Made by a program: the position numbers and the translations under genes
Shown here: one piece after another, positions 6,654 through 57,552 of the stretch
How the letters are laid out: each line of letters opens with the position of its first letter
Numbering within the stretch: the stretch's first letter is position 1
The notes under the pieces: generated by a model
Seen by the model: only the letters and a program-made list of their open reading frames with translations
Database searches by the model: none
What the model was told of the DNA's origin: nothing
Assembly: GCA_051748565.1 (NCBI GenBank)
Contig: JBNJHN010000003.1
Coordinates: forward strand, 9,596-73,595
Origin: Bacillota bacterium
GTDB lineage: Bacteria > Bacillota > Dethiobacteria > DTU022
DNA: 64,000 nucleotides
Direction of reading: 5' to 3'

Positions 6654-8633
6654 ATGAGATATGCTGAAACAGGGTATAATTTGGAAATTAACTTATCGAC
6701 TGGAAACATTGAGAAGGTGGAAACCGATCCGGAATTAACAAAAATGCATCTGGGCGGCCTGGGAACCAATGCCAGGTTGTTATGGGATCGGGTCCCCCCC
6801 GAAGCTGAACCTTTTTCTCCGGATAATCTTTTAATTTTTGGGACAGGCCTCTTGTGCGGCACCCCTGCTATAGGAGCCAACCGGACTATAATTAGCACTT
6901 ACTCTCCTCAGACTTTATTTATGGCTTTTTCCATGATGGGAGGATTCTTTGCCCCGGAATTAAAATATGCCGGCTATGATAAAGTAATCTTTAGCGGTAA
7001 GTCGCCGAATCTTGTTTACATATGGATTAATAATGACAAAGTAGAAATACGTGATGCTTCTCATTTGCAGGGCAAAGGGGCGGTTCAAACCGAAAAGCTT
7101 ATTCGAGAGGAGCTGCAGGAACCCAATGCCCAGGTAGCCGCTATCGGCCTGGCCGGTGAAAACAGGGTCTATATGGCCTCCATTGAGCACGGACGATCCA
7201 GCGCCAGCAGACTGGGTCTGGGTGCCGTGATGGGTGACAAGGGGATAAAAGCAATAGCTGTACGTGGAACTAACGATGTCAATGTAGCCCGACCGGTTGA
7301 TTTAATTAATTTTTGTACAGATATTCTGAATTATATTCCGGAAAGAGATGGCAATCCGATTCCCGGAGTGATGCCTATCTTAGCCGGGCTTGGTTCGCCG
7401 AAAGAGATGTTAATTCATGATGAAAAGTGGCATACTGAGAATTTCATGTGGGGTAATGCCAGAACACGGATAAAAGATTACTGGACCAAGGATATTGAAG
7501 ATAAGTGGAAAGAATCGCAGGAGAGTGCGCGAAAGCGTCTGATAAGCTGTTATAACTGCCCGATGGAATGCGGAGCCATAATTTCTATTCCCGGTATATC
7601 AACTTACATGATGAAATGTTTCTCGAAGCTCACCTACACCATGGCAGCATACTCAGACCTTGATTTCGGTTTTAGAATAGCGCAGCGTGCCACAGAATAC
7701 GGTGTCGATGGATTTTCTATGCCACAGGTTATGGCCTTTGCCCTCGAGCTTTATGAGGCCGGCATCCTTACAGATGATGACTTTCCGGGTATGCCTTCCG
7801 ATAATGAGGAAAGATTTTTCTGGTTGCTGGACAGGATTGTCCGGCGGGAAGGGATTGGTGATATTCTGGCCGATGGTGTTTACTGGGCAGCCCGCCGGAT
7901 TGGTAAGGGAGCGGAGGAATATGATCATAATACTATTAAAAAGCATGAGCAGTTACCGCTCAAGCTATCAATGCTGAATCCGATTTATTTCCTGATGTGG
8001 GCCACCGGCGAAAAGATTAATATTACCCAGATTGAAGGGAATTTCCCCCAGGCACCTTTTCCCACCCGTGAGGAGCGGGAAGAGTTTGTTAAGGATTGGG
8101 TTCATGTTCCTGATGAGAAGTTCAAGAAATACTTTTTAGATTGGGAACTGCGCGGGGAAAATTCATTTCCTTATTACCCTCCCGTTGATGCTACCTGTGA
8201 AATTGTTGATTGGCAGGAGACCATGCATTATATTGATGATTCCCTCGGATTATGTGCCGGTTTATCATCGTTTCCCCTAAAGCCTCCCTATCATATCCAT
8301 AACCTGCCGATCCTGATTTCGAAAGCAGCCGGAATTGATATGGATAAAGATAAACTGTGGGAAATTGCCAAGAGGAATCGGACTTTATTGAGAGCGATTA
8401 ATGTAAGAAGAGGTTTAAGAAGGGAAGATGACCGTCCTCCTGAGAATCATTGGAAGAAGAGATTCCCCGAACTCGAAGTTCAGCTCTTGGATCAATATTA
8501 CAAACTTAAAGGTTTCAATAACGATGGTGTTCCAACCAGGGAATCCTTACTTGAATTGGGTATGGATTACGTTGGCGAAGACCTGGAGAAGAGAGGGATT
8601 TATGACAATGGCGAAAGTAAAAAAGAAAGTTAA
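6654..8633 (+). CDS. bamB: Tungsten-containing aldehyde:ferredoxin oxidoreductase-family protein; BamB-like active-site subunit of class II benzoyl-CoA reductase
   Basis: 659 aa, AOR N-terminal and catalytic domains. It is the first gene of an AOR / ferredoxin / HdrD / HdrA / MvhD / NuoE / NuoF / NuoG-like cluster. Confidence 0.85.
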   Translation: MRYAETGYNLEINLSTGNIEKVETDPELTKMHLGGLGTNARLLWDRVPPEAEPFSPDNLLIFGTGLLCGTPAIGANRTIISTYSPQTLFMAFSMMGGFFAPELKYAGYDKVIFSGKSPNLVYIWINNDKVEIRDASHLQGKGAVQTEKLIREELQEPNAQVAAIGLAGENRVYMASIEHGRSSASRLGLGAVMGDKGIKAIAVRGTNDVNVARPVDLINFCTDILNYIPERDGNPIPGVMPILAGLGSPKEMLIHDEKWHTENFMWGNARTRIKDYWTKDIEDKWKESQESARKRLISCYNCPMECGAIISIPGISTYMMKCFSKLTYTMAAYSDLDFGFRIAQRATEYGVDGFSMPQVMAFALELYEAGILTDDDFPGMPSDNEERFFWLLDRIVRREGIGDILADGVYWAARRIGKGAEEYDHNTIKKHEQLPLKLSMLNPIYFLMWATGEKINITQIEGNFPQAPFPTREEREEFVKDWVHVPDEKFKKYFLDWELRGENSFPYYPPVDATCEIVDWQETMHYIDDSLGLCAGLSSFPLKPPYHIHNLPILISKAAGIDMDKDKLWEIAKRNRTLLRAINVRRGLRREDDRPPENHWKKRFPELEVQLLDQYYKLKGFNNDGVPTRESLLELGMDYVGEDLEKRGIYDNGESKKES

Positions 8634-9147
8634 GGTAATCAAAATCGACACTGATAAATGTAACGGCTGCAGGTCGTGCGAGGTAATTTGCTCGGCGTTT
8701 CACGCTACCGATAAATATAGTATTATCAATCCCTCCAGGGCCCGAATCCGTCTGATTCGCGATCCACTGCGTGATGTTTACCTTCCTGTATATGCAGGTG
8801 AATATACGCCGGCTGAATGTATGGGCAGAGACAAATATGTTGTCGATGGAAAAGAATATGAAGAATGTGCTTTCTGCAGGGCTTCCTGTCCCTCCAGGGA
8901 TGTTTTCAAAGAGCCTGACTCGGGTCTTCCGCTTAAATGCGACATGTGTGAAGACGATCCGGAACAGGAGGAGCCTCTCTGTGTTAAATGGTGTTTGTCT
9001 GATGCCCTGACATATGAGGAGAGAGAGGAAGAAGTTGAAGAAGAAGTGCTGCTGGACGAGATGGAAACAGGTTTAAAATCACTGGTGGATAAATACGGTT
9101 TAAATAATCTTATTGACAGCATTGCCCGAATGTCACAAAAAGACTAA
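8602..9147 (+). CDS. bamC: 4Fe-4S ferredoxin-domain protein, BamC-like
   Basis: Cys clusters CNGCRSCEVIC, CAFCRASCP and CDMC..C, with an acidic C-terminus. The ATG at 8602 overlaps the bamB stop and follows GAGAGGGA. The exact start is uncertain (8602 or 8608). Confidence 0.7.
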   Translation: MTMAKVKKKVKVIKIDTDKCNGCRSCEVICSAFHATDKYSIINPSRARIRLIRDPLRDVYLPVYAGEYTPAECMGRDKYVVDGKEYEECAFCRASCPSRDVFKEPDSGLPLKCDMCEDDPEQEEPLCVKWCLSDALTYEEREEEVEEEVLLDEMETGLKSLVDKYGLNNLIDSIARMSQKD

Positions 9148-9179
9148 AAGATTATGATAAAGGTGGGGATTATAAAATC

Positions 9180-10331
9180 GTGGATACTGAAGCCCCGATT
9201 AAAGAGGTTATAGAGGAGATAAAAGAATTTGGTGGCGACGCTGTAAAATTTTGTTATCAATGTGGAAAATGCGATACAGTATGTCCCTGGAATAAAGTTA
9301 CAAAATTTAGCATACGCAAGTTGATACGTGAGGCTACTTTTGGCATACCGGAAGTAGAGCTTGAAGAAGTCTGGCGCTGTACTACCTGTGGTAAATGCCC
9401 CCAGGAATGTCCCAGGGACGTAAAGCAAGTAGATGATGTTGTGGCCATGCGCAGGATAGCCGCGGAATATGGTGTATCTTCAACCCTGCTGAAACCTGTT
9501 CGTTCAGCAAGCGCAAGCCTTGCCGCTGAAGGTAATCCCGTTGTCCAGGATCGATCCAGGAGGACTGAATGGGCAGAAGGTCTGAATATAAAACCATTCA
9601 CAGAAGAAATGGAAATTCTTTATTTCTCCTGCTGCTATGTCTGTTATGATCAGAGATTGAAGGAAATTGGTCAGGCCACGGTCAGGCTTCTTAATAAAGC
9701 TGAAGTCGATTTCGGCACACTGGGCACCCTGGAGAACTGTTGTGGAGAAAGTATCCGTAAAACAGGCAATGAAGAAATTTTTAAAAGTCTGGCCAGAGAA
9801 AATATTAAAACCTTTATAGAACACGGGGTCAAGAAAATTCTCGTTTCTTCTCCACATTGCTACCATACTTTTAAGAACGAATATCCTGAATTCAAAGCGA
9901 ATTTTGAAGTGGTTCACATTACCCAGTATTTGCACGATCTAGTTAACGAGGGAAGACTTCAGATCAATAAGGAGTATGAAAAGAAAGTAACCTATCATGA
10001 TCCCTGTTATCTGGGCCGGCATAACGGTATTTATGACATTCCGCGGGAAATTTTAAAAAAGATACCCGGCCTGGAACTAAACGAGATGGCCGAATCGCGT
10101 GAAGACAGTTTATGCTGCGGGATGGGTGGAGGCAGGATTTGGATCGATACCAAGATGCCTGAGAGATTCTCCAATATCAGGATTCAAGATGCAATCAATC
10201 TTGGAGCCGAAGTCCTTGTCACCTCTTGCCCTTATTGTGTTGATGCTCTCGAGGAAAGCAGATCGGGGTTAAACCTGGAAAGTGCTATAGAGATAAAAGA
10301 TATCACGGAAATACTCCAGGAAGTGATCTGA
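9180..10331 (+). CDS. bamD: HdrD-like heterodisulfide-reductase-type protein with a ferredoxin domain and two CCG Cys-rich domains, BamD-like
   Basis: CYQCGKCDTVCP and CTTCGKCPQECP motifs are followed by CCG-type motifs (CCGESI, CCGMGGG). The GTG start lies 11 nt after AAAGGTGGGG. Confidence 0.75.
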   Translation: MDTEAPIKEVIEEIKEFGGDAVKFCYQCGKCDTVCPWNKVTKFSIRKLIREATFGIPEVELEEVWRCTTCGKCPQECPRDVKQVDDVVAMRRIAAEYGVSSTLLKPVRSASASLAAEGNPVVQDRSRRTEWAEGLNIKPFTEEMEILYFSCCYVCYDQRLKEIGQATVRLLNKAEVDFGTLGTLENCCGESIRKTGNEEIFKSLARENIKTFIEHGVKKILVSSPHCYHTFKNEYPEFKANFEVVHITQYLHDLVNEGRLQINKEYEKKVTYHDPCYLGRHNGIYDIPREILKKIPGLELNEMAESREDSLCCGMGGGRIWIDTKMPERFSNIRIQDAINLGAEVLVTSCPYCVDALEESRSGLNLESAIEIKDITEILQEVI

Positions 10332-10400
10332 GGTGCGAAAGATTAAATGTACTGCAATAGAATAGCGGGTTTGATATAAAACCTGATGAGGTGATAGAAA

Positions 10401-13400
10401 GTGGAAAATAAATTGGAAATAAATAGCGGGCAACTTGTCAGAAACCTTGCAGGCAGTAATTTTGGAGATGTAATGGTTGTAGGTGGAGGGGTCAGCGGCA
10501 TCCAGTCATCCTTAGATCTTGCTGCTGCCGGTTTTAAGGTTTATCTTGTTGACAGCGCCCCTGCTATTGGCGGCCATATGGCCCAGCTGGATAAGACCTT
10601 TCCGACCAATGATTGCTCTATGTGAATACTCTCACCCAAACTGGTCGAGGTCGACCGGAATACCAATATTGAGGTCCTTTCCTATACTGAAGTGGATAGT
10701 GTGGAAGGCGAAGCGGGGAACTTTAAAGTAACCCTGAGGAAAAAACCCAGGTATGTATTAGAAGACAAGTGCACCGGCTGCACTGTCTGCGTTGAGTATT
10801 GTCCTGTAAAGTACCCTGATAAATTTAATCAGGATATATCGAAGAATAAAGCGATTCATATATACTATTCTCAGGCAATCCCCCTGATCACCTATATAGA
10901 TGAAAGCTGCATTTACCTGAAAGAGAAAAAGTGTCGCATCTGTGAGGCAGTATGTAAAAACGAGGCAATAGATTTTAATCAGACCGAAGAGAAGGTGGAA
11001 ATAAAAGTCGGGGCTGTAGTTCTGGCTCCGGGTTATGAACCATTTGATCCGGGCATAAGAGAGGACTATGGCTACGGTAAGTTCGAGAATGTGATAACCA
11101 GCATGGATTATGAACGGTTGACGGATTCCACGGGTCCTTATGAAGGCCAGGTCCTGCGCCCTTCCGATATGAAGCATCCCCATAAAGTAGCCTGGATCCA
11201 GTGTGTCGGTTCCAGGCAGGTTAACCCACCGGGCGCGAAAAGCTATTGTTCCTCGGTCTGCTGCACCTATACGCAGAAACAGGTAATATTAACAAAAGAA
11301 CATGACCCTGAATCTGAATGTGTCGTATTCCATAATGACATTCGATCCTACGGCAAAGATTTCGAGCGATTTTATAAAAGGGCAGAGGATCTGCCCGGGG
11401 TTCAATTTATCAGAAGCTATCCGTCGGTGGTAAAGGAAGATCCGGAAACCAGGAGTGTTACGATAAAATATGCAACCAATGATGACGGTGTGAAGGAAGA
11501 AGAATTTGACATGGTTGTATTATCGGTCGGGTTAAATCCACCCGCTGATTTTGAGAAACTGGCTGATAAGTTTGGTATTGAATTAAATGATCATGGCTTC
11601 TGCAAAACTAATCCTGTAAATACAATGCAGACTTCCCGCCCGGGATTATTTATCAGCGGCGCTTTCCAGGGTCCGTTAGATATCCCCGAATCTGTTGTAA
11701 CTGCGAGCGGCGCAGGGTCTCAGTGTGGCGAGCTTCTTAATTACAGGAGAGGGGATCTCTCCAAAGAAAGGGTATATCCTCCGGAAAGGGATGTTTCTTC
11801 AGAAGAACCCAGAATCGGCGTTTTTGTATGTCACTGTGGAGCGAATATCGGCAGGGTGGTTGATGTTCCTTCCAATGTTGAATATTCCTTAACCCTGCCC
11901 AACGTTGTCTATGCCCAGGAACAGCTTTTTTCATGTGCAACTAATTGTGCCGAAGAAATTACTGAGAAGATAAAAGAGAAAGAGCTAAACCGCGTAATCG
12001 TTGCCGCCTGTTCTCCGAGGACACTTGAAATGTTATTCCGGGATACACTTCGGGAGGCGGGGCTGAATCAATACTACTATGAAATGGCCAATATCAGGGA
12101 ACATTGCTCCTGGGTTCACCCCAAAGAAAAAGATAAAGCTACTCAAAAATCCAAGGATATTATTCGAATGGCAGTAGCCCGTGCCCGCCACCTGGAGCCG
12201 TTAATGGAGATAGATCTGCCGGTTGATAAAAGGGCTCTGGTGGTTGGTGGAGGAATTGCCGGCATGACCTGTGCACTCTCTATTGCCGCTCAGGGGCATG
12301 AAGTGCACCTGGTGGAAAAGGATAAAAACCTGGGAGGAACAGCAAGGAAAATATATGATACCCTGGAAGGGCTTGATGTTCAGACCTATTTACGCGACAT
12401 GATCGGCAAAGTTTATCAAAACCCCCTGATCCATGTTTATACCGATGCTGCAATCAAACAGAACACAGGGTATATTGGAAATTTTATTACCAGGGTGGAG
12501 ATTGATGGAAGAATAGCAGAAATTAAGCATGGAGCAACTGTGATTGCCACGGGTGCTGATGTTTATACACCCAGCGAATACCTTTATGGTAAAGATGACA
12601 GGGTTCTGACCCATCTCGAGTTGGAAGAAAAGATTGTTGAAGAAGATGAAAAAGTTATTAATGCTGAAAACCTGGTTATGATTCAGTGCGTGGGTTGCAG
12701 AAATGAAGACAGGGATTATTGTAGTCGAATCTGCTGTAACGAATCCGTAAAAAACGCCCTGAAGCTAAAAGAGAAAAACCCGCAGATGGATATCTATATT
12801 CTCTTCAGGGACATGAGAACCTATGGTTATAATGAAGATTTTTACAGGGCTGCGGCGGATAAAGATATCAAATTTATTCGTTACGAACCTGAAGAAGAAC
12901 CACAGATTGAAGCTGCTGAGGGAGAAAACGGGCCTGTTTTAAGGGTTACCCTGCCCGATTATGTTTTAGAGAAAAAACTTGAAATAGATGCTGATATTAT
13001 TGCACTGGCTGCTGCTGTTATTCCTTCTGCAGGGGCTAAAGAAATAGAAAGCTTATTCAAGGTTGGCTTGAACCAGGATGGTTTCTTTAAAGAGGCCCAT
13101 GTTAAATTAAGGCCGGTTGAATTTGCTGCAGACGGTGTTTATCTTTGTGGCTTGGCACACTATCCAAAGCTGATTTCAGAGACGGTCAGCCAGGCTTATG
13201 GTGCCGCGGGCCGGGTTTTAACCCTTCTTTCAAAAGATATCGTGACCGCTTCCGGCTCTATATGTGAGGTTGAAGAAGAAAAGTGTGTTTCCTGTGGAGC
13301 ATGTATTGCAGCCTGTACCTACGGTGCCATAGAATTCCGGGAAACAGAAATGGGTATTAAAGCTTTTGTCAATCCTGTTCTTTGTAAAGGTGACGGAGTC

Positions 13401-13526
13401 TGCAATGCAGTTTGCCCGACAGGGGCCATACAACTTAAGCACTTTACCGACAAAGAACTCTTGAGTCAAATCGATGCTGCAATACCGGAAGAAGAAGTCA
13501 TAAAGAAAATTGAAGCGCTGGTTTAG
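10401..13526 (+). CDS. bamE: HdrA-like FAD/FeS flavoprotein, BamE-like, with in-frame UGA (selenocysteine) at 10623-10625
   Basis: The track ORFs 10401-10625 and 10692-13526 are in the same frame and separated only by TGA. The reading is ...[23 protein letters not shown]..., which puts the UGA at the conserved HdrA Cys. Also present are an N-terminal FAD motif [10 protein letters not shown], a second GGGIAG motif, and several CxxCxxCxxxCP ferredoxin motifs. Confidence 0.8.
10641..10658 (+). other. Candidate bacterial SECIS hairpin 15 nt downstream of the bamE UGA
   Basis: ctGGTCGaggtCGACCgg forms a 5-7 bp stem with a small G-containing loop at the spacing expected for SelB-dependent recoding. 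Confidence 0.4.
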
Positions 13527-13671
13527 AACTTTTGGCAATACAAAATGTTTAGTTACTCAATTTAATATAAATCAAAATAAAATTTCTATTTCACCATAGC
13601 AAGGGAAATGAGTCTTTGGAAGTTTTTAAAAAATATATTTAAACGTATTAGAAACACAGGAGGTGTGGCGA

Positions 13672-14439
13672 ATGAGTACAGAAATGACTTTTAAACCAAG
13701 CATTATTGGTTTTGTATGTCAGTGGTGAGGATATGGAGCTGCGGATCTGGCTGGAGTTTCCAGACTACAATATACAACTGAAATCAGGCTTATTCGCGTT
13801 ATGTGCACCGGTAGAATCGACCTCGCACATATAATTAGGGCTTTCTCAAATGGGATAGATGGTGTTTTTATTGGTGGTTGTCGTTTAAATGAATGTAATT
13901 ATATTACTCACGGAAATTTTCATGCACTAAATATTGTGCTTCTTTGTAAGAAAATGATGGAATACATCGGTCTGAATCCCGAACGTTTGAGGATTGAGTT
14001 TATGTCATCCGGGGAGGGGAATCTTTTTGCCGAAGTTGTCGATGATTTTGTAGAGACAGTCAGGGAGACAGGCCCTCTTGGAAAAAGTGAGGGAATTGAT
14101 GAAACTGGATTAAAAGTAAATCTTAAAGCTATAACCAGCTTAATCCCCTATATCAGGCTGGTGGAAAGTGAAAGGCTAAGAGGGCACTTTGGAACATTAG
14201 CAGAGTTCAGGGACTTTTATTCCAGCGAAGAATTTGAAAGGCTCTTCCAGGAGCTGATCGCAGATAAACTGGCAATCAGCCAAATTATGATGCTCCTGCG
14301 GGAAAAACCCCTGTCTACGGGAGAAATCTCTGAGATACTGGGTCTTTCCCCGTCTGAAATATCAAAACACCTGAATAGTTCAGCAAAGCTTGGCCTGGTC
14401 AGGTATGAGGAAAATGAGAAGCGCTTTGCTTCTGTCTGA
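13672..14439 (+). CDS. bamF: MvhD/FlpD-like (methyl-viologen-reducing hydrogenase delta subunit family) protein, BamF-like, with in-frame UGA (selenocysteine) at 13726-13728
   Basis: The ATG at 13672 follows AGGAGGTG. Translation [53 protein letters not shown] places the UGA at the second Cys of the conserved CxWC..GADLAG MvhD motif. It is in frame with the track ORF 13801-14439. Confidence 0.75.
13746..13764 (+). other. Candidate SECIS hairpin about 18 nt downstream of the bamF UGA
   Basis: tCTGGAgttTCCAGa forms a 5-bp stem with a 3-nt loop. An alternative pairing is tctgg/ccaga with a 9-nt loop. Confidence 0.35.
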
Positions 14440-14487
14440 TACTAATCAGCAATCAGCATGGTGAAGGGGGATCGCGGGGCAGAGGCC

Positions 14488-14940
14488 ATGGATAATACCA
14501 GAATTGATCAAATCGTTGAAAAATATGACTGTGAAGCCAGTTCGCTCATCCAGGTATTATTGGAAATTCAGAGTGAAAACCGCTGGCTTCCAAAGCAGGT
14601 ATTGGAGAGGATTAGCGAAAGGCTAGAGGTGCCTTTGGCCAGAATACAGCACATTGCTACTTTTTATAAGGCATTTAGTTTAGTTCCGAAGGGCCGTCAT
14701 GAAATACATATTTGCATGGGTACCGCCTGTCATGTCCGTGGTGCGCAACTTGTCCTCGACAAAGTTCAAGACCTGACCGGTATTAACCCTGGCGAAACAG
14801 ACCTGGATCTCAAATTCAGCCTGGAGACGGTTAACTGTCTTGGTTGTTGTGCTTTAGGCCCGGTGATGGAAATTAATGGGCAAATTCACGGGAAGATATC
14901 ACCGGCCGAGACAGCAGATGCCCTAAAAAAATACGACTGA
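14488..14940 (+). CDS. bamG: NuoE-like 2Fe-2S thioredoxin-fold ferredoxin, BamG-like
   Basis: Cys pattern CMGTACHVRG ... CLGCCALGP is typical of NuoE/HoxE. The ATG at 14488 follows GGGGCAGAGG. The upstream in-frame ATG at 14458 has no RBS. Confidence 0.75.
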   Translation: MDNTRIDQIVEKYDCEASSLIQVLLEIQSENRWLPKQVLERISERLEVPLARIQHIATFYKAFSLVPKGRHEIHICMGTACHVRGAQLVLDKVQDLTGINPGETDLDLKFSLETVNCLGCCALGPVMEINGQIHGKISPAETADALKKYD

Positions 14941-14962
14941 GGGAAGATTGTGAGGGAAGATT

Positions 14963-16885
14963 ATGCCACGGATAAACTCACCTGCTGAACTGGAAGCAAT
15001 CAGAAAGGAATTACTGTCTCAACGAGATCCCGACAAACGGACTATTACGCTTTGCTCCGGTTCTGCCTGCCACGCAACGGGCAGCAGGTTGGTAGCTGAG
15101 AGTATCGAAGAAGAGATAAAAAAACAGGGTTTAACTGATCAAGTCGATATAAGGAAGACTGGTTGCCATGGTTTTTGTGAGAGAGGTCCGATCATAGTTA
15201 TCCACCCCGATGAAATATGCTACTTACAGATTAAGCCCGATGATGTTCCTGAAATTATTTCTGAGACGATCAAAGAAAATAGGATCATAGAGCGTTTACT
15301 TTATAAAGATCCCGCTACAGAGGAAGAGATAATTCATGAACATGAAATTCCCTTCTACAAGAACCAGAAAAGGCTTCTTTTCGGGGCCAATATTACAATA
15401 GATCCCAAAAGTATTGAAGACTACCTGGCTATTGGCGGTTATTCTGCGCTGGTTAAAGTTCTTTTTGAAATGAATCCTGAACAGGTTTTGGAAGAAATTA
15501 AAAAATCTAACCTGAGGGGCAGAGGTGGCGGCGGCTTTCCGGCAGGGATAAAATGGGAAGGCTCCCGTAATGCACCGGATGATAAGAAATATGTAATAGT
15601 AAATGCGGACGAAGGTGACCCCGGAGCCTACATGGATAGAAGTTTACTCGAAGGCAATCCTCATTCAGTTCTTGAGGGGCTGGCGATTGGAGCTTATACC
15701 ATTGGCGCAGAGGAGGGTTATATTTACGTTCGGCAGGAATACCCGCTGGCAGTAGAAAATATTGGTATTGCGATCAGCCAGGCTGAGGAATATGGATTCC
15801 TGGGGGATAATATTCTCGGCTCAGGCTTTAATTTCAAAGTTATTGTGCACCAGGGGGCAGGCGCGTTTGTCTGCGGCGAGTCTAGCGCTTTAATGACGGC
15901 TTTGGAAGGCAGGGCAGGTGAACCAAGGCCGAAGTATATCCGTTCAAACATCAAGGGCCTATGGGAAAAACCTACTGTTTTGAATAATGTTGAAACCTGG
16001 GCCAATGTTCCATTAATTATCAATAACGGTGCCGATTGGTTTACACAATATGGAACGGAAAAAAGCAAGGGTACAAAGATTTTTTCATTGGTAGGCAAAA
16101 TAAACAATACCGGTCTTGTAGAAGTAGCGATGGGTATGACCCTGCGAGATATTATTTTCAAAATAGGTGGCGGAATCCCCGGAGACAAGAAGTTTAAAGC
16201 AGTACAGACTGGCGGGCCGTCCGGCGGCTGCCTGCCAGCAGATTTATTAGATTTGGAAGTAGGTTTTGATGAGCTTACCCAGGCCGGCTCGATGATGGGT
16301 TCCGGGGGTATGATTGTCATGGATGAAGATACCTGCATGGTTGATGTGGCCAGGTATTTCCTTGATTTTCTCGCTGATGAATCGTGCGGTAAATGTGTCC
16401 CCTGCCGCGAAGGTGTCAAACAGATGCTGAACATTTTGACTAATATTACCCGGGGTAAGGGTAAGGAGGGTGATATTGAGCTTTTGGAGGAGCTGGCGGA
16501 GGTGGCCAGAGAGGGAGCACTCTGTGCTTTGGGTCAGACTGCGCCAAATCCGTTTATAAGTACATTAAAGTATTTTAAAGATGAGTATGAAGCACATATC
16601 AATGAAAAGAAGTGCCCGGCACTATATTGCAAAGAGCTTATTGACTACTATATTGATCCGGAAAAATGCCGGGCCTGTATGATTTGTCTCAAACAGTGTC
16701 CCGCAGATGCAATTATAGGGGAAAAGAAAAAGATCCATATAATAGACCAGGAGAAATGCACGAAGTGCAATACTTGTTTTGAGGTTTGTCCACCCCGTTT
16801 TAATGCGGTGAAGAAAATATCCGGTGAACCTGTCCCGCCTCCAATTTCCGAAGAAGAAAGAGTTATCACCAGGGGGAATAATTAA
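14963..16885 (+). CDS. bamH: NuoF-like NAD(P)H-binding FMN/4Fe-4S flavoprotein with extra N-terminal thioredoxin-like and C-terminal 2x[4Fe-4S] domains, BamH-like
   Basis: 640 aa. Contains the GRGGGGFPAGIKW FMN/NADH motif, the SLBB domain, CGKCVPCREG, and the C-terminal CRACMICLKQCP and CTKCNTCFEVCP motifs. Confidence 0.85.
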   Translation: MPRINSPAELEAIRKELLSQRDPDKRTITLCSGSACHATGSRLVAESIEEEIKKQGLTDQVDIRKTGCHGFCERGPIIVIHPDEICYLQIKPDDVPEIISETIKENRIIERLLYKDPATEEEIIHEHEIPFYKNQKRLLFGANITIDPKSIEDYLAIGGYSALVKVLFEMNPEQVLEEIKKSNLRGRGGGGFPAGIKWEGSRNAPDDKKYVIVNADEGDPGAYMDRSLLEGNPHSVLEGLAIGAYTIGAEEGYIYVRQEYPLAVENIGIAISQAEEYGFLGDNILGSGFNFKVIVHQGAGAFVCGESSALMTALEGRAGEPRPKYIRSNIKGLWEKPTVLNNVETWANVPLIINNGADWFTQYGTEKSKGTKIFSLVGKINNTGLVEVAMGMTLRDIIFKIGGGIPGDKKFKAVQTGGPSGGCLPADLLDLEVGFDELTQAGSMMGSGGMIVMDEDTCMVDVARYFLDFLADESCGKCVPCREGVKQMLNILTNITRGKGKEGDIELLEELAEVAREGALCALGQTAPNPFISTLKYFKDEYEAHINEKKCPALYCKELIDYYIDPEKCRACMICLKQCPADAIIGEKKKIHIIDQEKCTKCNTCFEVCPPRFNAVKKISGEPVPPPISEEERVITRGNN

Positions 16886-16887
16886 CA

Positions 16888-17499
16888 ATGAGTAAAATTT
16901 TATTGACTATTGATGGCAAAGAGGTTGAAGCAAATGATGATATGACTATATTGGAAGCGGCACAAAGTATAGGTATAGTTATACCTACACTTTGTCACCA
17001 CGAGAAGTTAGAACCTTATGGGGGGTGTCGGGTTTGCACAGTTGAGGTAGAATCAAATGGCAGGACTAAGCTGGTTGCAGCCTGTGTTTATCCGGCAGAG
17101 CGTAATTTAACTGTTATAACCAGGTCCGAAAAGATAGACAGAATTCGCAAAATGATCTTACAGCTATTGCTTTCTCATGCCCCGGATTCCGAGCAGCTGC
17201 AGGATTTGGCCAAGGAGTATGGCGCAGATAGTAATCGCTTTGAAAAAGAGGCTTCATTTTGCATACATTGTGGTTTATGTGTAAGGTACTGCAACGAAAT
17301 AAAAAAGAAGGATGCTGTCGGATTTATCAACAGAGGTGCCAGAAGAGAGATAAACTTTATCCCGGAGGTTGCCTCCAAAGAATGCTGGCATTGCAAAGAA
17401 TGTTTCCCACTCTGTCCCACAGCGGCACTTCAGGCAGCTTATGTTTTCACTGAAGCCCTTGTGGCTTCTAAAGCTCCTTTTGAAACTGAATCTGATTGA
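16888..17499 (+). CDS. bamI: NuoG N-terminal-like 2Fe-2S/4Fe-4S ferredoxin, BamI-like
   Basis: 203 aa. A 2Fe-2S fold (CHHEKLEPYGGCRVCTVEV) is followed by CIHCGLCVRYCN and CWHCKECFPLCP. Confidence 0.7.
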   Translation: MSKILLTIDGKEVEANDDMTILEAAQSIGIVIPTLCHHEKLEPYGGCRVCTVEVESNGRTKLVAACVYPAERNLTVITRSEKIDRIRKMILQLLLSHAPDSEQLQDLAKEYGADSNRFEKEASFCIHCGLCVRYCNEIKKKDAVGFINRGARREINFIPEVASKECWHCKECFPLCPTAALQAAYVFTEALVASKAPFETESD

Positions 17500-17568: not shown

Positions 17569-19479
17569 TTATTCTTTGAAAGCAATTTCAATTATATAAA
17601 CCCCTGAGGAAAATTTCTTTTCCACCACCGAGCCGGTTTTCTCCAATAAATGCAAAACATGTTTATTGTCGGGCAGTATTTCAGCTTTAAAGCCGACCAG
17701 ACCTTGTTTTTTTGCAATATAAGCCAGGTAAGAAAGTAGTTTAGTGCCTAAACCTTTTTGATGGTAATCGTCTCTGACGACCAAGGCAACCTGGGCAGTG
17801 AGAGTGCCTTCAATTACTGCAAATTGACCAACCCCGATCACTACTTCAGAGTCACCGTCCTCAATAGTCGCCAGGATAACCATTTCCTTTGTATAATCAA
17901 TTACGACAAAAATGTCCTGCAGCATTTCATGGGGCATATCTTTCCTTCGTGAAAGAAAGCGGTTATATTTTGTTTCATCTGAAAGTTTATAAAAGAAGTC
18001 TTTTAAAAGGGGCTCATCACTTATCTTAACCGGTCGCAGGCGAAATTCCAGCCCTGATTTTGTTGCCTTGTGCGTCTCAAGTTCAGCAGGGTATTCTCCT
18101 TTTTCTCCGGGCATAAAAGCCTGGTCCTGATAAATAAGAGATGCCTTCTTTGCTTCTTCAATCAGCCATGGTTGGAAATCAGGATGGGCGATAGAAATCA
18201 AGGCCATTGCTCTTTCCCTGATATTTTTACCATGCAGATATGCTATCCCGAATTCTGTAACCACGTAATGAATATCACCGCGGGTTAGTGTTACACCGGC
18301 GCCTTCTTTAAGAAAAGGGACGATTCTGGATATTTTTCCGCCATCAGTAGTTGAAGGCAAGGTAAGAATGGTTTTGCCACCCGGTGCCAGAACCGCACCA
18401 CGCATGAAATCTGCCTGGCCGCCGATTCCGCTGAAAAAAAATCTGCCGAGAGATTCTGCCGTAGCCTGCCCGGTTAAATCTATTTCCAGTGCGGTATTAA
18501 TTGCCACCATGTTTTTATTCATAGAAATTGTGATGGGACTGTTTGTATAGTCAATCTGCTTAAATTCTATACTCGGATTATCATCAAGGAATCGATATGT
18601 CGCCTTACTCCCCATGCAAAAGGAGGCTACAGTTTTTCCCCGGTCGACAGTTTTTTTAGAGTTATTGACCACGCCTTTTTTCATAAGCTCCACGATTCCA
18701 TCACTGAGCAATTCCGTATGGACACCTAAATTATTTTTTGATTCAAGACTGTTAAGAATTGCATTCGGCAGGCTTCCGTAACCGACCTGAATAGTATTGC
18801 CATCTTCAATTATCCGTGAAGCAAACTGGCCAATTTTTTTAACAGCATCAGAAGGCGTATCGGGAGTTTTATATTCCAGTACGGGCTCGTCATAATGCAC
18901 CACGAAATCAACATCTTTGATTTTTAGGAATGTATCCCCATGAGTTCTCGGCATTTTAGAATTGAGCTGGGCAATTACCAGAGAGGCATTTTCAACTGCA
19001 GTCTTGGTAATATCAACACTGATCCCGAGGCTCAGGTATCCGTGCTTATCGGGAAGTGAGGTTTGGATAATGGCGACGTCGACAGGCACCAGCTTGCGCC
19101 GGAATAATTCCGGAATTCCGGAAGCGAATATGGGAGTATAATCAGCAACTCCTTTGTTCACTATCTCCCTGGTATTTTCTACAATGAAGAAAGAATTATG
19201 CCTGAAGTTTTTCCTGAATTTATGATCGGCATATGGTGCAACACCTAGAGTCCAGACATGTAAAATTTCAGTGTCAAAGAAAGCTTTCGGGTTAGATTCT
19301 ACGAACTTTATCAGAGCCTGAACCAGGTACTGGGGTTCGCCACAACCGGTACCGATGTAGATCCTGTCACCGGCGTGAATATGACTGAAAATAACTTCTT
19401 CCGTGTCAAATTTTTCAGGGTATTTTTCTTTTGATTTTTCCAAATGAGCTTTCCGTTGTTGAATGTTTTCCCGATTCAT
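17569..19479 (-). CDS. Acetyl-CoA hydrolase/transferase-family (4-hydroxybutyrate / succinyl-CoA:acid CoA-transferase type) protein fused to a C-terminal GNAT acyltransferase domain
   Basis: 636 aa. The N-terminal ~450 aa form a family-I CoA-transferase (AcetylCoA_hydro/transf). The C-terminal ~170 aa show the GNAT motif A region (VVRDDYHQKGLGTKLLSYL). Convergent with bamI. Confidence 0.75.
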   Translation of the reverse strand: MNRENIQQRKAHLEKSKEKYPEKFDTEEVIFSHIHAGDRIYIGTGCGEPQYLVQALIKFVESNPKAFFDTEILHVWTLGVAPYADHKFRKNFRHNSFFIVENTREIVNKGVADYTPIFASGIPELFRRKLVPVDVAIIQTSLPDKHGYLSLGISVDITKTAVENASLVIAQLNSKMPRTHGDTFLKIKDVDFVVHYDEPVLEYKTPDTPSDAVKKIGQFASRIIEDGNTIQVGYGSLPNAILNSLESKNNLGVHTELLSDGIVELMKKGVVNNSKKTVDRGKTVASFCMGSKATYRFLDDNPSIEFKQIDYTNSPITISMNKNMVAINTALEIDLTGQATAESLGRFFFSGIGGQADFMRGAVLAPGGKTILTLPSTTDGGKISRIVPFLKEGAGVTLTRGDIHYVVTEFGIAYLHGKNIRERAMALISIAHPDFQPWLIEEAKKASLIYQDQAFMPGEKGEYPAELETHKATKSGLEFRLRPVKISDEPLLKDFFYKLSDETKYNRFLSRRKDMPHEMLQDIFVVIDYTKEMVILATIEDGDSEVVIGVGQFAVIEGTLTAQVALVVRDDYHQKGLGTKLLSYLAYIAKKQGLVGFKAEILPDNKHVLHLLEKTGSVVEKKFSSGVYIIEIAFKE

Positions 19480-33066: not shown

Positions 33067-34092
33067 ATGGGTACTTTTAATCCCTTGAATATACTTGTTG
33101 CCTTGCAGCCCGGGCTGGGAAGCCCGGTTGAATACGAAGATTTAATCAAAGCACGATTTCCTGACAAAGTATCTAAAGGTGAGATCAGGGTTCGACTGAT
33201 CCAGGATGGTTCTGCCGCAGCTATCCCCGATGAATATCTCGATACGCATATTGTTGGTGCCGGGGTTGTTGTAGAGAGAGTCCCGGAGATGGATAACCTG
33301 CAATGGGTGATGACTTTCAGTGCAGGTATTGATCACTGGGAAAAATGGGGCAAACTTCCTTCTCATGTTCCTTTGACTCATCTTCCGGGTGGTTCAGGCA
33401 TTCCTATTTCAGAATTTGTGATCGGCTTGATGCTGAACCTTTCGAAAAAATTTAACCTGCTTTGGGATCAGCAAAAAGAAAGAAAATTTATTCGTGTCCG
33501 TGGGGAGGAGCTTTATGGAAAAACAATTGGCATAGTCGGTCTTGGCGGTATCGGTCGACAGATTGCCAAGCGGGCCAAAGCTTTTGATATGCGTGTAATT
33601 GGCTCTGATATCCAGGTTACGGAGATTCCCCATGTAGACGAGGTTTTCTTGAGTGATCAGGTGGATGAAGTAATCCGCCAGAGTGATTTTCTGGTACTTG
33701 CCTGCCCGGAGACCAGTGAAACCCGGGGAATGATGGATGAAAGAAGTTTCAAGTTAATGAAAAAAACAGCGTACCTGATAAACTGTGCCCGCGGTTCTCT
33801 GATCGTAAAAGAAGATTTCATCAAAGCGTTGAACGAAGGTTGGATTGCCGGGGCAGCTAATGACACCCATTGGATCAAAAAACCGCTTCCCTCATACCTT
33901 CCTGAAGATGATGAACTTTGGGCATGTAAGAACATACTGATCACACCTCATATTTCCAGCTGGTCTGATCTGTACGCCCCCAGGTTCGGCGGCCTTTTTG
34001 TAAATAATATCGAACGCTTTCTTGATGGAAAACCTCTGACCCATGTTGCGCCCGGATTTGAGGGTGATCCGCAGTGGTTGAAAAATATATAA
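33067..34092 (+). CDS. D-isomer-specific 2-hydroxyacid dehydrogenase (NAD-binding)
   Basis: GIVGLGGIGRQIAKRA Rossmann motif and the catalytic R/E/H arrangement of the D-2-HDH family. Confidence 0.8.
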   Translation: MGTFNPLNILVALQPGLGSPVEYEDLIKARFPDKVSKGEIRVRLIQDGSAAAIPDEYLDTHIVGAGVVVERVPEMDNLQWVMTFSAGIDHWEKWGKLPSHVPLTHLPGGSGIPISEFVIGLMLNLSKKFNLLWDQQKERKFIRVRGEELYGKTIGIVGLGGIGRQIAKRAKAFDMRVIGSDIQVTEIPHVDEVFLSDQVDEVIRQSDFLVLACPETSETRGMMDERSFKLMKKTAYLINCARGSLIVKEDFIKALNEGWIAGAANDTHWIKKPLPSYLPEDDELWACKNILITPHISSWSDLYAPRFGGLFVNNIERFLDGKPLTHVAPGFEGDPQWLKNI

Positions 34093-34110
34093 ATTAAAAG
34101 GAGATTTCTT

Positions 34111-35256
34111 TTGGATCTAACCAAACTAATAGAACCTTTCGAAAATGCGCTTATTGATCCGACAGAAGAGATCAGACAGTGGAAGAGAGAAAAAGGGAGT
34201 AAGGCAGTCGGTTTTTTAATGGCCGATGTTCCCGAGGAGTTAATTCATGCCGCAGGATTTCTACCTTATGGAATCACCGGCGGAAATGCCGAGATGGAGC
34301 TGGCTGAAACACACCTGCAGCCCTGGGTCTGCTCTTACGTTCGTAATTCTCTCTCTCTTGCCCTTAGCGGAAAACTTGATTTCTTAGATGGTTTGATTAT
34401 CCCGCATACCTGTGATACAACGCGTATGCTGCTTGATTTATGGAAGCATGTCCGGCCCTTTCCCTACATGGAAGATTATCGCCTGCCGCGGCAGGTTGAT
34501 CGCCCCAGCGCCGGAAATTATCTTATTAAAGAGTTGGAAAGAGTTAAATGTGGATTAGAGCAGTATGCAGGTGAATCAATCGGTCCGGACACCCTTAAAA
34601 AGAGTATAATTCTCTATAATCAAAACCGGGAACTTTTACGCAGGGTTTTCGATATCCATGCCCAGGATCCAGCTATAATCAGCAGCCGTGAAATATATAA
34701 ACTGATTAATGGTGCCATGGTTATGCCCAGGGAAAGGGTCAATAAGCTATTGAACCAGATAGTCGATATATTGGATGAATCAAACATTTGCGAAGCTAAC
34801 GGCAACTATTTGCGTCTATTATTATCAGGCACGTTGTTGGAACCCTTCGAAATACTGGATTTAATTGACAGTTGCGGGGGCGCTGTAATCGGAGACGATT
34901 TTCAAAATGGTTATCGATATATCGAAACTGATGTCCTGGTCAGGGATGATATAATGGGGGCCTTTGCCGAGCGGCAGCTGAATCGCATTCCGTCTGCAGC
35001 ATTTGATATAAAGGAGAGGCCTAGAAGGGAATTTTTGGCAGAGCTTGCTAAAGAGAAACATGCCAACGGTGTAATTTTTTTGCACCAGAGTTTTTGTGAG
35101 CCTGAAAACTTTGATTACTATGACAACTTACAGGCCATGAAAAACGCCGGTATCCCGGCCATACGGCTCGAAACTCAATTTGGTCGATCCTCCCTGGGAC
35201 AAATGCGCACCAGGATTCAGGCCTTCATGGAGATGCTCGGGGGTGCAAGCCAATGA
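34111..35256 (+). CDS. 2-hydroxyacyl-CoA dehydratase / benzoyl-CoA reductase BcrC-BadD-HgdB-family subunit
   Basis: 381 aa, HGD-D family, with conserved Cys residues. Translationally coupled to the next paralog. Confidence 0.75.
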   Translation: MDLTKLIEPFENALIDPTEEIRQWKREKGSKAVGFLMADVPEELIHAAGFLPYGITGGNAEMELAETHLQPWVCSYVRNSLSLALSGKLDFLDGLIIPHTCDTTRMLLDLWKHVRPFPYMEDYRLPRQVDRPSAGNYLIKELERVKCGLEQYAGESIGPDTLKKSIILYNQNRELLRRVFDIHAQDPAIISSREIYKLINGAMVMPRERVNKLLNQIVDILDESNICEANGNYLRLLLSGTLLEPFEILDLIDSCGGAVIGDDFQNGYRYIETDVLVRDDIMGAFAERQLNRIPSAAFDIKERPRREFLAELAKEKHANGVIFLHQSFCEPENFDYYDNLQAMKNAGIPAIRLETQFGRSSLGQMRTRIQAFMEMLGGASQ

Positions 35257-36449
35257 CCTCCGGAGTAGCTTTTAAAACTGCTGCACTGATGAAAGAAGTT
35301 ATGGCCCGCTATAACGAAGCCGGGAAAGATGCCAAGAACAGAGGCATTCCAGTGGCCTGGGTAACTGCAGTATTTCCAGTCGAGATTATCTATGCTGCCG
35401 GTCTATTTCCTTATTATCCGGAAAACTTTGGTGCTGTGGCCGCTGCCAGGAAAGTTGCCGATAAGTTATCTTCAGCCGCTGAAGCGAGGGGATATGCCCG
35501 GGACCTCTGCGGCTATGCCCGTTGCGGTATTGGTGATGCCTATGCTACTGAGCACCCGATCGGAGAAATATTAAAACCGGACCTAATATTCTGCTGTAAC
35601 ACCCAGTGCGGTAGCCTGCCGAAATGGTTCGAGGTGGCCGGACGATTTTATAATGTTCCTTATTTCTTACTGGATTCCCCGCGGGTGGGAATTGAAACAG
35701 ACCAACTCTGTAAGGGTTATTACGTGGAACAGCTTTATGAAATGATTGCTTTCATCGAGAAGTTTACCGGGAATCCTTTTGATTTTGACCGATTAACCGA
35801 GGTGCTCACGCTTTCCAACGAAGCCTGCCGCCTGTGGAATGAAATTTTAGGTACTGCTGCCCTGAAGCCTGCTCCCTTTGGATTTTTTGATGCCAGTTTT
35901 CATATGGCCCCTATTGTCACCATGCGCGGAACACAGGAAGCAGTTAATTATTACCGTGCTTTAAAAGAGGAAATTGATAAACGGATCGAAAAGGGTATAA
36001 CAGCCATTCCTGATGAACGTTACAAGATATATTTTGACCATATACCCTGCTGGCCTAAATTACGCTGGTTTTCAGAACTTTTTGCTTCACGTGGAGCCCT
36101 GGTCGCTGTTTCGCAATATACTCATTCCTGGGCATATTCATTTGACCTTGAATGTCCCATGGAAAGCCTGGCTGAAAGTTATACTCATGAATTTGTTAAC
36201 CGCTGTTTTGACTACCGGGTACAGAGAAAGATTGATTTTATGGAAAAATACGGGGTTGATGGGTTTGTATTATTTTCCAACCGAAGCTGTAAACCCAATG
36301 CTATCGGGCTTTATTCCAAAAGCAAATTGATCAGAGAAAAAACGGGGCTTCCCGGGGTGGTATTTGAAGCCGACATGTCAGACCTGCGTTTTTTTTCCGA
36401 AGCACAGGTGTTGGCTAAACTGGAATCATTTTTTGAGCAGTTAAAATAA
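35253..36449 (+). CDS. 2-hydroxyacyl-CoA dehydratase HgdA/BcrB-family subunit (paralogous partner)
   Basis: 398 aa, same family. Start overlaps the upstream stop (ATGA). Confidence 0.75.
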   Translation: MTSGVAFKTAALMKEVMARYNEAGKDAKNRGIPVAWVTAVFPVEIIYAAGLFPYYPENFGAVAAARKVADKLSSAAEARGYARDLCGYARCGIGDAYATEHPIGEILKPDLIFCCNTQCGSLPKWFEVAGRFYNVPYFLLDSPRVGIETDQLCKGYYVEQLYEMIAFIEKFTGNPFDFDRLTEVLTLSNEACRLWNEILGTAALKPAPFGFFDASFHMAPIVTMRGTQEAVNYYRALKEEIDKRIEKGITAIPDERYKIYFDHIPCWPKLRWFSELFASRGALVAVSQYTHSWAYSFDLECPMESLAESYTHEFVNRCFDYRVQRKIDFMEKYGVDGFVLFSNRSCKPNAIGLYSKSKLIREKTGLPGVVFEADMSDLRFFSEAQVLAKLESFFEQLK

Positions 36450-36475
36450 TATTGCATACACGAGGAGGATTAACT

Positions 36476-38224: not shown

Positions 38225-38268
38225 GCCAATGCAAACTTTAATTAAAAATCCGAGAAGGAGGCATCGAT

Positions 38269-38853
38269 ATGAATAATATTGACTTTTTAATGGCCGGGGT
38301 CGGAGGCCAGGGTACAATACTGGCCAGCAATATTCTGGCACAAGTAGGCCTGAATTTAGGCTATGATGTTAAGAAAGCTGAAGTGCATGGAATGGCACAG
38401 CGGGGGGGACAGGTCGACAGCCATGTGCGCTGGGGTGAAAAAGTGCATTCCCCGCTGGTGGAAGAAAACAACGTTGATTACATTATTGGTTTTGAAATGT
38501 TGGAGGCATCCCGCTTTCCGCACTTTTTAAAGCAGGGTGGTACGGCTCTAGTTAATGACTATCGCATCAACCCGCCTGTGGTAAATCTTGGTACTGCCAC
38601 ATATCCGTCAAAAGAGGAAATTGAAGCTCTCCTGCTCAGCAGGGCTGGAAAAGTATATTGGATAGAAGGCACGGACATCGCCAGGGATTTGGGAAATCCC
38701 GCCATGGTCGGCGTGGTGCTGCTTGGCGCTCTATCAAATCTCGTCGGAGGTGATCAGGAAATTTGGCTTAAAGTTATCGGGCAAATGGTTCCGCCCAGGT
38801 TTGTAGAACTTAATAAAGAAGCTTTTTTAGCGGGTCGAAAAGCTACCATTTAA
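38269..38853 (+). CDS. iorB: Indolepyruvate oxidoreductase beta subunit
   Basis: 194 aa, pyruvate/ketoisovalerate oxidoreductase gamma-like domain (GVGGQG). Confidence 0.8.
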   Translation: MNNIDFLMAGVGGQGTILASNILAQVGLNLGYDVKKAEVHGMAQRGGQVDSHVRWGEKVHSPLVEENNVDYIIGFEMLEASRFPHFLKQGGTALVNDYRINPPVVNLGTATYPSKEEIEALLLSRAGKVYWIEGTDIARDLGNPAMVGVVLLGALSNLVGGDQEIWLKVIGQMVPPRFVELNKEAFLAGRKATI

Positions 38854-38888
38854 AGAATATAAAGTCATTTTATTAAGGAGGGAAAACG

Positions 38889-40454: not shown

Positions 40455-40467
40455 CCAAAAAAATCAT

Positions 40468-57535: not shown

Positions 57536-57552
57536 AAGTCAGATCAGCTCCT

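Follow-up and report, generated by a model that had tools for sequence, protein, structure and literature searches.

An in-frame UGA codon of bamE in a predicted class II benzoyl-CoA reductase operon very probably encodes selenocysteine

The bamE gene described here carries one in-frame UGA, at codon 75, and we conclude with a probability of about 0.93 that bamE is a single gene in which this codon is decoded as selenocysteine (Sec). The reading is based on the frame, the alignment of the codon with Cys or Sec in homologs, conservation of the TGA, the geometry of a downstream hairpin, constraint on that hairpin at the RNA level, and the fact that TGA serves as an ordinary stop elsewhere in the window, that is, the whole 64-kb (64,000-nucleotide) stretch of DNA that was analysed. 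Sec-containing BamE is already a documented selenoprotein, known from Desulfococcus multivorans. Features are listed in Table 1.

Table 1 Features of the bam operon and of the two UGA sites (positions in the window).
Feature	Position	Strand	Evidence
bamB, aldehyde:ferredoxin oxidoreductase-type catalytic subunit	6654-8633	+	Pfam AFOR_N 4e-69, AFOR_C 1.8e-61
bamC, poly-ferredoxin	8602-9147	+	4Fe-4S domains
bamD, HdrBC/HdrD-like, CCG domains	9180-10331	+	Pfam CCG 4.1e-32 plus Fer4
Shine-Dalgarno-like GAGGTG	10388-10393	+	Read from sequence; 7 nt before the bamE GTG start
bamE, fused double HdrA-like subunit of predicted class II benzoyl-CoA reductase, UGA at codon 75	10401-13526	+	Translation, Pfam, HdrA match
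Cys72 codon TGC, partner of Sec75 in the C-x-x-U motif	10614-10616	+	Sequence, translation
UGA, predicted selenocysteine codon, residue 75 of BamE	10623-10625	+	Frame, related loci, HdrA alignment
Putative bacterial SECIS hairpin CUGGUCG-AGGU-CGACCGG	10641-10658	+	Fold, conservation, bSECIS rules
bamF, MvhD-like adaptor with C-terminal winged helix-turn-helix, 255 aa, UGA read through	13672-14439	+	Translation; Pfam
Second predicted selenocysteine codon, BamF Sec19, motif CQW-U-GYGAADLAG	13726-13728	+	Translation, related loci
Conserved short hairpin CUGGA-GUU-UCCAG past the bamF UGA, candidate SECIS	13751-13763	+	Nearly invariant in related loci
bamG, NuoE-like	14458-14940	+	Pfam 2Fe-2S_thioredx 3.1e-49
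bamH, NuoF-like	14963-16885	+	Pfam Complex1_51K 1.1e-42, NADH_4Fe-4S 2e-33
bamI, NuoG-like	16888-17499	+	Pfam Fer2_4 2.2e-15

The first-pass annotation of this DNA had placed the ORFs 10401-10625 and 10692-13526 in one frame with a single TGA between them, and translation confirmed this. The two ORF starts are 291 nucleotides apart (97 × 3), translation of 10401-13526 contains exactly one internal stop, and the TGA at 10623-10625 joins both ORFs into a single gene of 1041 codons. On inspection of the sequence, the GTG at 10692 had no Shine-Dalgarno motif ahead of it comparable to that of the bamE start, which argues against the downstream ORF initiating on its own. Cys72 is the sole Cys encoded upstream of the UGA.

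Pfam domains delineated an intact bamBCDEFGHI operon that spans 6654-17499 on a single strand, in the order AFOR, ferredoxin, CCG, BamE, FlpD plus HTH, NuoE-like, NuoF-like and NuoG-like. The bamC ORF is open from 8428; translation probably begins at an ATG further in, at 8602 or 8608, where bamC still overlaps the 3' end of bamB. BamE itself contains two FAD/pyridine-nucleotide-disulphide oxidoreductase regions and 4Fe-4S domains, and it matched solved HdrA chains with an E value of 2.5e-164 in a permuted domain order: residues 24-442 align to HdrA 154-568 and residues 462-601 to HdrA 4-143, followed by a second FAD-binding region (612-731) and Fer4 domains at the C-terminus. At about 1000 aa, the protein thus fuses two HdrA-like units whose domains are permuted. 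It scored below the cut-offs of the NCBIfam models HdrA2 (934 bits against 1100) and HdrA (724 bits against 1400); judged from its sequence, the protein is a homologue of methanogen-type HdrA without being an HdrA equivalog, which is what a BamE should look like. The operon context and the fused double-HdrA architecture bear out the original assignment of 10401-13526 as bamE. Genes of the downstream benzoyl-CoA pathway lie nearby, namely oah (TIGR03200, 578 bits, curated cut-off 464) and had (TIGR03201, 485 bits, curated cut-off 339), while a dienoyl-CoA hydratase-like crotonase in the window scored under its cut-off. The encoded complex is predicted to be a class II benzoyl-CoA reductase, tungsten-dependent and ATP-independent.

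In the DCSxC motif the UGA takes the place of the second Cys, and it aligns to Cys197 of the solved HdrA 5odc_A, so that the earlier claim of a UGA on the conserved HdrA cysteine stands; six orthologues reading DCSMCIESPK at the site support it as well. The same annotation had named this position as one where some HdrA homologs have Sec, and the codon indeed aligns to a non-standard residue, X197, in PDB 9sfi_A, in agreement with the Sec197 described in Methanococcus maripaludis HdrA (PMC13518236). Among 77 informative related genomic loci covering the site, a sample biased toward this query, 71 carry TGA and six carry TGC, the latter being the six Cys-type BamE orthologues; three further loci were truncated and are outside this count. 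The codon alternates solely with Cys among orthologues, and 121 distinct sequences from metagenomes also have TGA there. Downstream of the codon, the Cys-type loci read IESPKFVEC, whereas the window and the Sec-type loci share ILSPKLVEV together with the hairpin. At least 524 relatives were detected. The nearest relatives of the window are metagenome-assembled genomes labelled Syntrophomonadaceae, Dethiobacter or Dethiobacteria, at no more than 88% identity. Both a UGA/Cys pair in homologues and TGA-containing orthologues in other organisms, as used for recognizing bacterial selenoproteins, were therefore found.

A hairpin had been proposed 15 nt after the UGA with the geometry of a bacterial SECIS element, and it was found at that distance, with a 5' arm at 10641-10647, an AGGU loop at 10648-10651 and a 3' arm at 10652-10658. 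The stem comprises 7 bp, including C-G and U·G pairs outside the bases that had been capitalised in the first-pass annotation. Taken by itself, the 18-mer has a folding energy of -9.7 kcal/mol (z = -2.7 relative to shuffled sequences), while longer windows around it were unexceptional (58 nt, z = -0.2; 91 nt, z = +0.1), and regional folding energy was consequently not used as evidence. Published limits for bSECIS elements are a loop of 3-9 nt, a stem of 4-16 bp, G followed by G or U at the start of the loop, a spacing of 16-37 nt and an energy of -7.5 kcal/mol or lower (PMC13188914). The bamE hairpin agrees with every one of these rules, having a 4-nt loop, a 7-bp stem, a loop 22 nt past the UGA and an energy of -9.7 kcal/mol. 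As in the bSECISearch consensus, its loop has G at position 2 followed by G; unlike the bSECISearch model, it has no evident bulged nucleotide or extended lower stem. When these rules were applied in a strict ungapped form, 21 of the 2217 TGA trinucleotides across the window (0.9%) were followed by a qualifying hairpin; the 13 TGA stop codons that were examined on the plus strand had none. Rfam returned no SECIS family, either at gathering thresholds over the whole window or at E ≤ 10 on 10560-10760, where the matches were at chance level. To our knowledge, Rfam has no general bacterial SECIS model, and this null result is therefore uninformative. An Rfam match to a glycine riboswitch was obtained elsewhere in the window.

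Conservation of the hairpin was analysed across related sequences. All cells of the stem are paired in 69 distinct sequences (100%), with one CG-to-AU compensatory change (locus L043) and UA/UG alternation. Because the hairpin is almost invariant, only this one full compensatory change was seen within the BamE type, and the support comes mainly from suppression of synonymous change rather than from covariation: over exactly the six codons of the hairpin, third-position entropy drops to zero or close to it (0-0.11 bits), compared with 0.6-1.65 bits in all flanking degenerate codons. The Cys-type orthologues have unrelated sequence there and no hairpin (-2 kcal/mol). In the metagenome sample, which was picked independently of the hairpin, a qualifying hairpin followed the codon in 113 of 121 distinct sequences, against the 0.9% background; some members of this set, which are paralogues, form the hairpin from other stems that carry compensatory changes and have a GGUC or GUU loop. 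Comparative sequence data thus indicate that the bamE hairpin is under selection as RNA, and on the same data the shared TGA in 71 of 77 loci and the frozen hairpin codons settle that it is more than a chance structure.

A second UGA of the same kind lies in bamF. Of 29 co-framed TGA junctions screened in the window, those of bamE and bamF were the only credible ones. Pfam found FlpD (4.3e-27) and HTH_5 in BamF, in the part encoded from 13801 onward. The bamF TGA is kept in all 65 related loci in which the motif was found, and Sec19 has the same residue number as the published Sec19 of Geobacter metallireducens BamF. The hairpin past this codon folds weakly (-6.9 kcal/mol for an extended stem) and fails the strict ungapped bSECIS filter; its conservation makes it a candidate SECIS.

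Recoding of the bamE UGA without selenium is an improbable alternative. It would involve near-cognate read-through with Trp or Cys, or a lineage-wide reassignment, the hairpin being merely a stimulator of read-through. Consistent with it, Sec machinery was not seen in the 64-kb window, in which no selA, selB or selD was found among the 55 long ORFs annotated, and no tRNA-Sec was detected, ARAGORN having found no tRNA at all. However, reassignment of the code was rejected, as TGA is the ordinary stop of 14 of the 55 ORFs, including four genes of the bam operon (bamD, bamF, bamG and bamI). Read-through with a standard amino acid is further at odds with the experimentally observed Sec at this position in HdrA, with the exclusive alternation with Cys, and with a hairpin that fits the SelB-type SECIS rules including the G-G/U loop.

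Still less probable is a split gene or pseudogene, in which the TGA is a true stop and the locus yields a 74-aa N-terminal fragment and a separate 944-aa protein, or no functional BamE. The ORF caller did return two ORFs, and the GTG at 10692 is available as a start. Yet the TGA recurs at the same codon in the 71 related loci and the 121 metagenome sequences, and the 22 codons from the TGA to 10692 are conserved as protein and align without a gap to solved HdrA. In addition, the N-terminal piece holds the GxGxxG FAD-binding motif required by the domain that follows, the start at 10692 lacks a Shine-Dalgarno motif, and a nonsense mutation would not bring synonymous-site freezing of a downstream hairpin. 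The first-pass annotation had judged a split pseudogene unlikely, a judgement strengthened by the persistence of the TGA in dozens of lineages. Lastly, a sequencing or assembly error hiding a Cys codon is scarcely credible: TGA is one base from TGC and TGT, and TGC does occur in six related loci, but those loci carry IESPKFVEC and no hairpin while the window bears the full Sec-type signature common to 71 independently assembled loci, and the operon holds a second TGA where BamF is known to carry Sec.

The selenocysteine reading was compared with three known systems. The D. multivorans BamE (dmul_C24500/10) is annotated as a selenoprotein of class II benzoyl-CoA reductase; according to its published description, it resembles the window gene in having a Sec-UGA followed by a SECIS, with the UGA splitting the gene into two locus tags, but it comes from a different host (PMC5109826). 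The G. metallireducens enzyme, for which a cryo-EM structure shows a Cys59-Cys62 disulfide in BamE (bioRxiv 10.64898/2026.04.10.717634), has the same operon, a fused double-HdrA BamE and BamF Sec19 at the identical residue number. Its Lys280 near the bifurcating FAD corresponds to K293 of the window BamE, and from this +13 offset in numbering its Cys59-Cys62 disulfide would be equivalent to Cys72-Sec75, a would-be selenenylsulfide. In M. maripaludis HdrA, a Cys-Sec bridge was seen between FAD and a [4Fe-4S] cluster (PDB 9sfi; PMC13518236). This protein shares with the window BamE the Sec at the homologous residue, the DC(S/A)xU motif and the thioredoxin-reductase-like domain, but it uses a 3'-UTR SECIS and different Sec machinery instead of an in-gene hairpin, and it is a single HdrA that reduces CoM-S-S-CoB, whereas the window BamE is a fused dimer that would feed a tungsten benzoyl-CoA reductase.

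By analogy with the established bacterial mechanism, SelB with Sec-tRNA(Sec) would bind the hairpin inside the coding sequence during translation and deliver Sec at the bamE UGA in competition with release factor 2. Sec75 would then belong to a C72-x-x-U75 motif located in the first of the thioredoxin-reductase-like FAD domains. Judging from the homologous pairs, Cys59-Cys62 in BamE of G. metallireducens and Cys-Sec197 in HdrA of M. maripaludis, Cys72 and Sec75 may form a reversible selenenylsulfide. The pair would take over the low-potential electron that leaves the bifurcating FAD and pass it to the adjoining [4Fe-4S] cluster, from which the path would lead toward BamC and BamB.

For annotation, bamE and bamF should each be treated as one selenoprotein gene and not as fragments or pseudogenes, and anaerobic aromatic degradation in this organism is predicted to need selenium as well as tungsten. 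More tentatively, and with somewhat less than even confidence, the C-x-x-C/U motif beside the bifurcating flavin of class II benzoyl-CoA reductases may in nature carry Sec more often than Cys (71 of 77 loci in the query-biased sample), within an HdrA family that uses at least three SECIS registers after the same codon (AGGU loop at +22, GGUC at +27 and GUU at +18). If so, the Cys59-Cys62 enzyme of G. metallireducens would be the minority form, and the proposed single-electron relay would normally proceed via a selenenylsulfide. Two structural studies from 2026 describe the redox pair beside the bifurcating flavin as an unresolved electron relay, and a comparison of the natural Sec-type and Cys-type BamE orthologues could show what selenium contributes to it.

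Two ORFs, 10401-10625 (74 aa) and 10692-13526 (944 aa), share a common frame in the ORF list, and translation of 10401-13526 gave 1041 sense codons with a single internal stop, the TGA at 10623-10625 (10600-10660: ttccgaccaatgattgctctatgTGAatactctcacccaaaCTGGTCGaggtCGACCGGaa). The first-pass annotation had described two co-framed ORFs split by one TGA, with a hairpin starting 15 nt past it; this observation was confirmed as written, the former from coordinates and translation and the latter from the sequence. A Shine-Dalgarno motif, GAGGTG, precedes the GTG start at 10401 by 7 nt, and inspection of the sequence ahead of the GTG at 10692 revealed no comparable motif. The gene, bamE, is located between the CCG-domain gene and the MvhD/FlpD-like gene, and the genes across 6654-17499 follow the bamBCDEFGHI order of class II benzoyl-CoA reductase. 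Two genes of the benzoyl-CoA pathway, oah and had, lie farther along, and both scored above their curated cut-offs. The read-through protein matched solved HdrA chains (E = 2.5e-164) in permuted domain order, with residues 24-442 corresponding to HdrA 154-568 and residues 462-601 to HdrA 4-143, and a second FAD domain was found at 612-731. This architecture fits BamE of G. metallireducens, a 'fused HdrA dimer with extensive domain permutation' (bioRxiv 10.64898/2026.04.10.717634). The score in the NCBIfam HdrA equivalog test was 934 bits, below the cut-off of 1100, as expected for a paralogue.

Coordinates of bamE, its neighbours and other features of the window
Feature	Coordinates	Strand	Remark
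Aldehyde:ferredoxin-oxidoreductase-type protein	6654-8633	as bamE	
Poly-ferredoxin	about 8602-9147	as bamE	
CCG-domain HdrBC/HdrD-like protein	9180-10331	as bamE	
bamE	10401-13526	+	in-frame UGA, codon 75
bamF, MvhD/FlpD-like protein with C-terminal HTH	13672-14439	as bamE	second in-frame UGA 13726-13728, codon 19, motif CQW-U-GYGAADLAG
NuoE-, NuoF-, NuoG-like proteins	14458-17499	as bamE	
636-aa ORF	17569-19479	-	directly downstream of bamI, opposite strand
D-2-hydroxyacid dehydrogenase	within 33067-45852		
Two HGD-D family proteins (2-hydroxyacyl-CoA dehydratase or BcrBC-like)	34111-36449		
Indolepyruvate/2-oxoacid:ferredoxin oxidoreductase-like pair	36452-38853		
Two AMP-forming CoA ligases, MFS transporter, PaaK-like ligase	within 33067-45852		
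Proton-translocating NAD(P) transhydrogenase, three genes (pntA-like, 4TM piece, pntB)	55761-58737	-	
gcvT	60448-61767 as listed		true start probably later
gcvH	61767-62165		
Glycine cleavage P-protein subunit	62169-63518		

HMMER placed the UGA codon, without gaps, on the second Cys of FPTNDCS(I/M)C-ILAPK in solved HdrA (Cys197 of 5odc_A) and opposite a non-standard X at position 197 of 9sfi_A, within FPTDDCAMXILAPK. HdrA of the 2026 M. maripaludis Hdr-Vhu-Fwd super-assembly carries Sec197, whose bridge to a Cys lies between cluster A3 and the FAD (PMC13518236). Since X197 and the published Sec197 coincide with the UGA, the first-pass statement that some HdrA homologs have Sec here was verified. 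A genome-collection scan listed 80 related loci with identities of 72-88%; among the matches listed, MAGs labelled Syntrophomonadaceae, Dethiobacter or Dethiobacteria were the closest. The homologous codon was TGA in 71 of the 80 and TGC in six (L033, L046, L050, L059, L066, L080), while three end before the site; the six TGC loci and Cys197 of 5odc_A bear out the expectation that the UGA stands opposite Cys in homologs. Sec-type genes read DC S(M/I) U-IL(S/A)PKLVEV(G/D)R and the six Cys-type genes DCSMC-IESPKFVEC. The TGA could be a sequencing error in a Cys-type gene, which is implausible because the window has the complete Sec-type signature. A pseudogene or split gene was excluded: the TGA is conserved across related loci, the 22 codons that separate the ORFs are conserved at the protein level, and 10692 lacks a ribosome-binding site. 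Global reassignment of UGA was likewise excluded, because 14 of 55 ORFs end in TGA, among them bamD, bamF, bamG and bamI.

The bamE hairpin satisfied all four bSECIS criteria, for loop, stem, spacing and energy, as quoted in PMC13188914, with a 4-nt loop (AGGU; G at position 2, then G), a 7-bp stem, a UGA-to-loop spacing of 22 nt and an energy of -9.7 kcal/mol. Under the same strict filter, 21 of 2217 TGA trinucleotides of the window qualified (0.9%), and a qualifying hairpin was absent after all 13 plus-strand TGA stop codons that were examined. Across 72 aligned TGA-type sequences (69 distinct), 100% of cells in the 7-bp helix were paired, with one fully compensatory change (C-G to A-U, in locus L043) and a U-A/U-G alternation at one position; shifting the 3' partner by 1-3 columns reduced pairing to 0-57%. 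The synonymous sites are more telling than the pairing. Third-position entropy was 0.00-0.11 bits in the hairpin codons CUG GUC GAG GUC GRC CGG against 0.6-1.65 bits in every degenerate flanking codon on both sides, and by our calculation the rank-order probability of all six falling below the 17 flanking codons is about 1e-5. In Cys-type orthologues these codons are free to vary and the hairpin cannot form (-2 kcal/mol). The bSECIS criteria and the frozen synonymous sites together bear out the proposed SECIS-like stem-loop 3' of the UGA.

An independent sample was obtained by scanning metagenome contigs with the pattern F-P-T-N-(D/E)-C-x-x-TGA-AT only, so that the hairpin played no part in selection. 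A qualifying hairpin was present in 113 of 121 distinct downstream sequences (93%), most of them of the BamE type, including versions whose closing pair is U-A instead of C-G. Other HdrA-like paralogues (metagenome loci such as L086, L088, L095, L103, L113 and L180) share the UGA position but have different hairpins: GGAUGUC-GGUC-GACAUCC, GGAUGCC-GGUC-GGCAUCC, GGAGGCC-GGUC-GGUCUCC and GAGUGC-GGUCG-GCACUU at spacing 27, and CAGACUC-GUU-GAGUCUG at spacing 18. They differ by compensatory substitutions and retain the G-(G/U) loop, a pattern that would be expected of a SelB-binding element.

By the established bacterial mechanism, the hairpin would recruit SelB with Sec-tRNA(Sec) for recoding; no tRNA, selA, selB or selD was found within the 64-kb window. 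The structure of G. metallireducens BamE shows a disulfide between Cys59 and Cys62, at 3.4 A from cluster E3 and 13.3 A from the bifurcating FAD, that is proposed as a low-potential electron relay toward BamB (bioRxiv 10.64898/2026.04.10.717634). The FAD-contacting Lys280 of that enzyme corresponds to K293 here, and this +13 numbering offset, which is not an alignment, would place Cys59/Cys62 onto C72/U75. Density for a selenenylsulfide was reported at the equivalent Cys-Sec197 pair of M. maripaludis HdrA (PMC13518236). From these two structures, a C72-U75 selenenylsulfide/selenol-thiol couple would be expected to act as an electron relay; the authors of both leave the pair's exact role unresolved (bioRxiv 10.64898/2026.04.10.717634; PMC13518236).

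The UGA residue of bamF shares its number with the Sec19 published for G. metallireducens BamF, and each of the 65 related loci in which the motif could be located has TGA at this codon. A short hairpin 3' of it, CUGGA-GUU-UCCAG (13751-13763), is nearly invariant; it is energetically weak and did not pass the strict bSECIS filter. Three Cys-type loci (L033, L050, L059) have TGC in BamE yet TGA at the BamF Sec19 position, so their loss of Sec from BamE did not result from lost Sec decoding.

Elsewhere in the window, a tandem glycine riboswitch (60383-60578; Rfam RF00504, 66 and 42 bits) is found upstream of gcvT, whose true start is probably later than listed, and of gcvH and the P-protein subunit gene. 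A second cluster, of aromatic or aryl-acid type, appears to occupy 33067-45852. In the 636-aa ORF, residues 17-448 are butyryl-CoA:acetate CoA-transferase-like, and a Pat-like acetyltransferase domain follows at the C-terminal end (473-622).

HdrA has long been known as a family of selenoproteins, both bacterial and archaeal (PMC1794560), D. multivorans BamE is a listed UGA/SECIS selenoprotein divided between two locus tags (PMC5109826), and Sec19 of BamF has been described for G. metallireducens (bioRxiv 10.64898/2026.04.10.717634). The feature is therefore already known, and the interpretation as a Sec-containing BamE is supported: a documented selenoprotein was correctly recognized in another organism, probably Dethiobacteria-related. 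Two minor points may be new, namely the near-invariance of the 18-nt hairpin across MAGs of different phylum labels and the several alternative SECIS registers within the family. By the titles of the 80 listed loci, this hairpin is almost identical across MAGs with the labels Bacillota (Syntrophomonadaceae, Dethiobacter, Desulfotomaculum), Thermodesulfobacteriota, Chloroflexota, Planctomycetota and others. With mis-binning of MAGs as the alternative, such near-identity across phylum labels suggests that the bam operon has spread horizontally.
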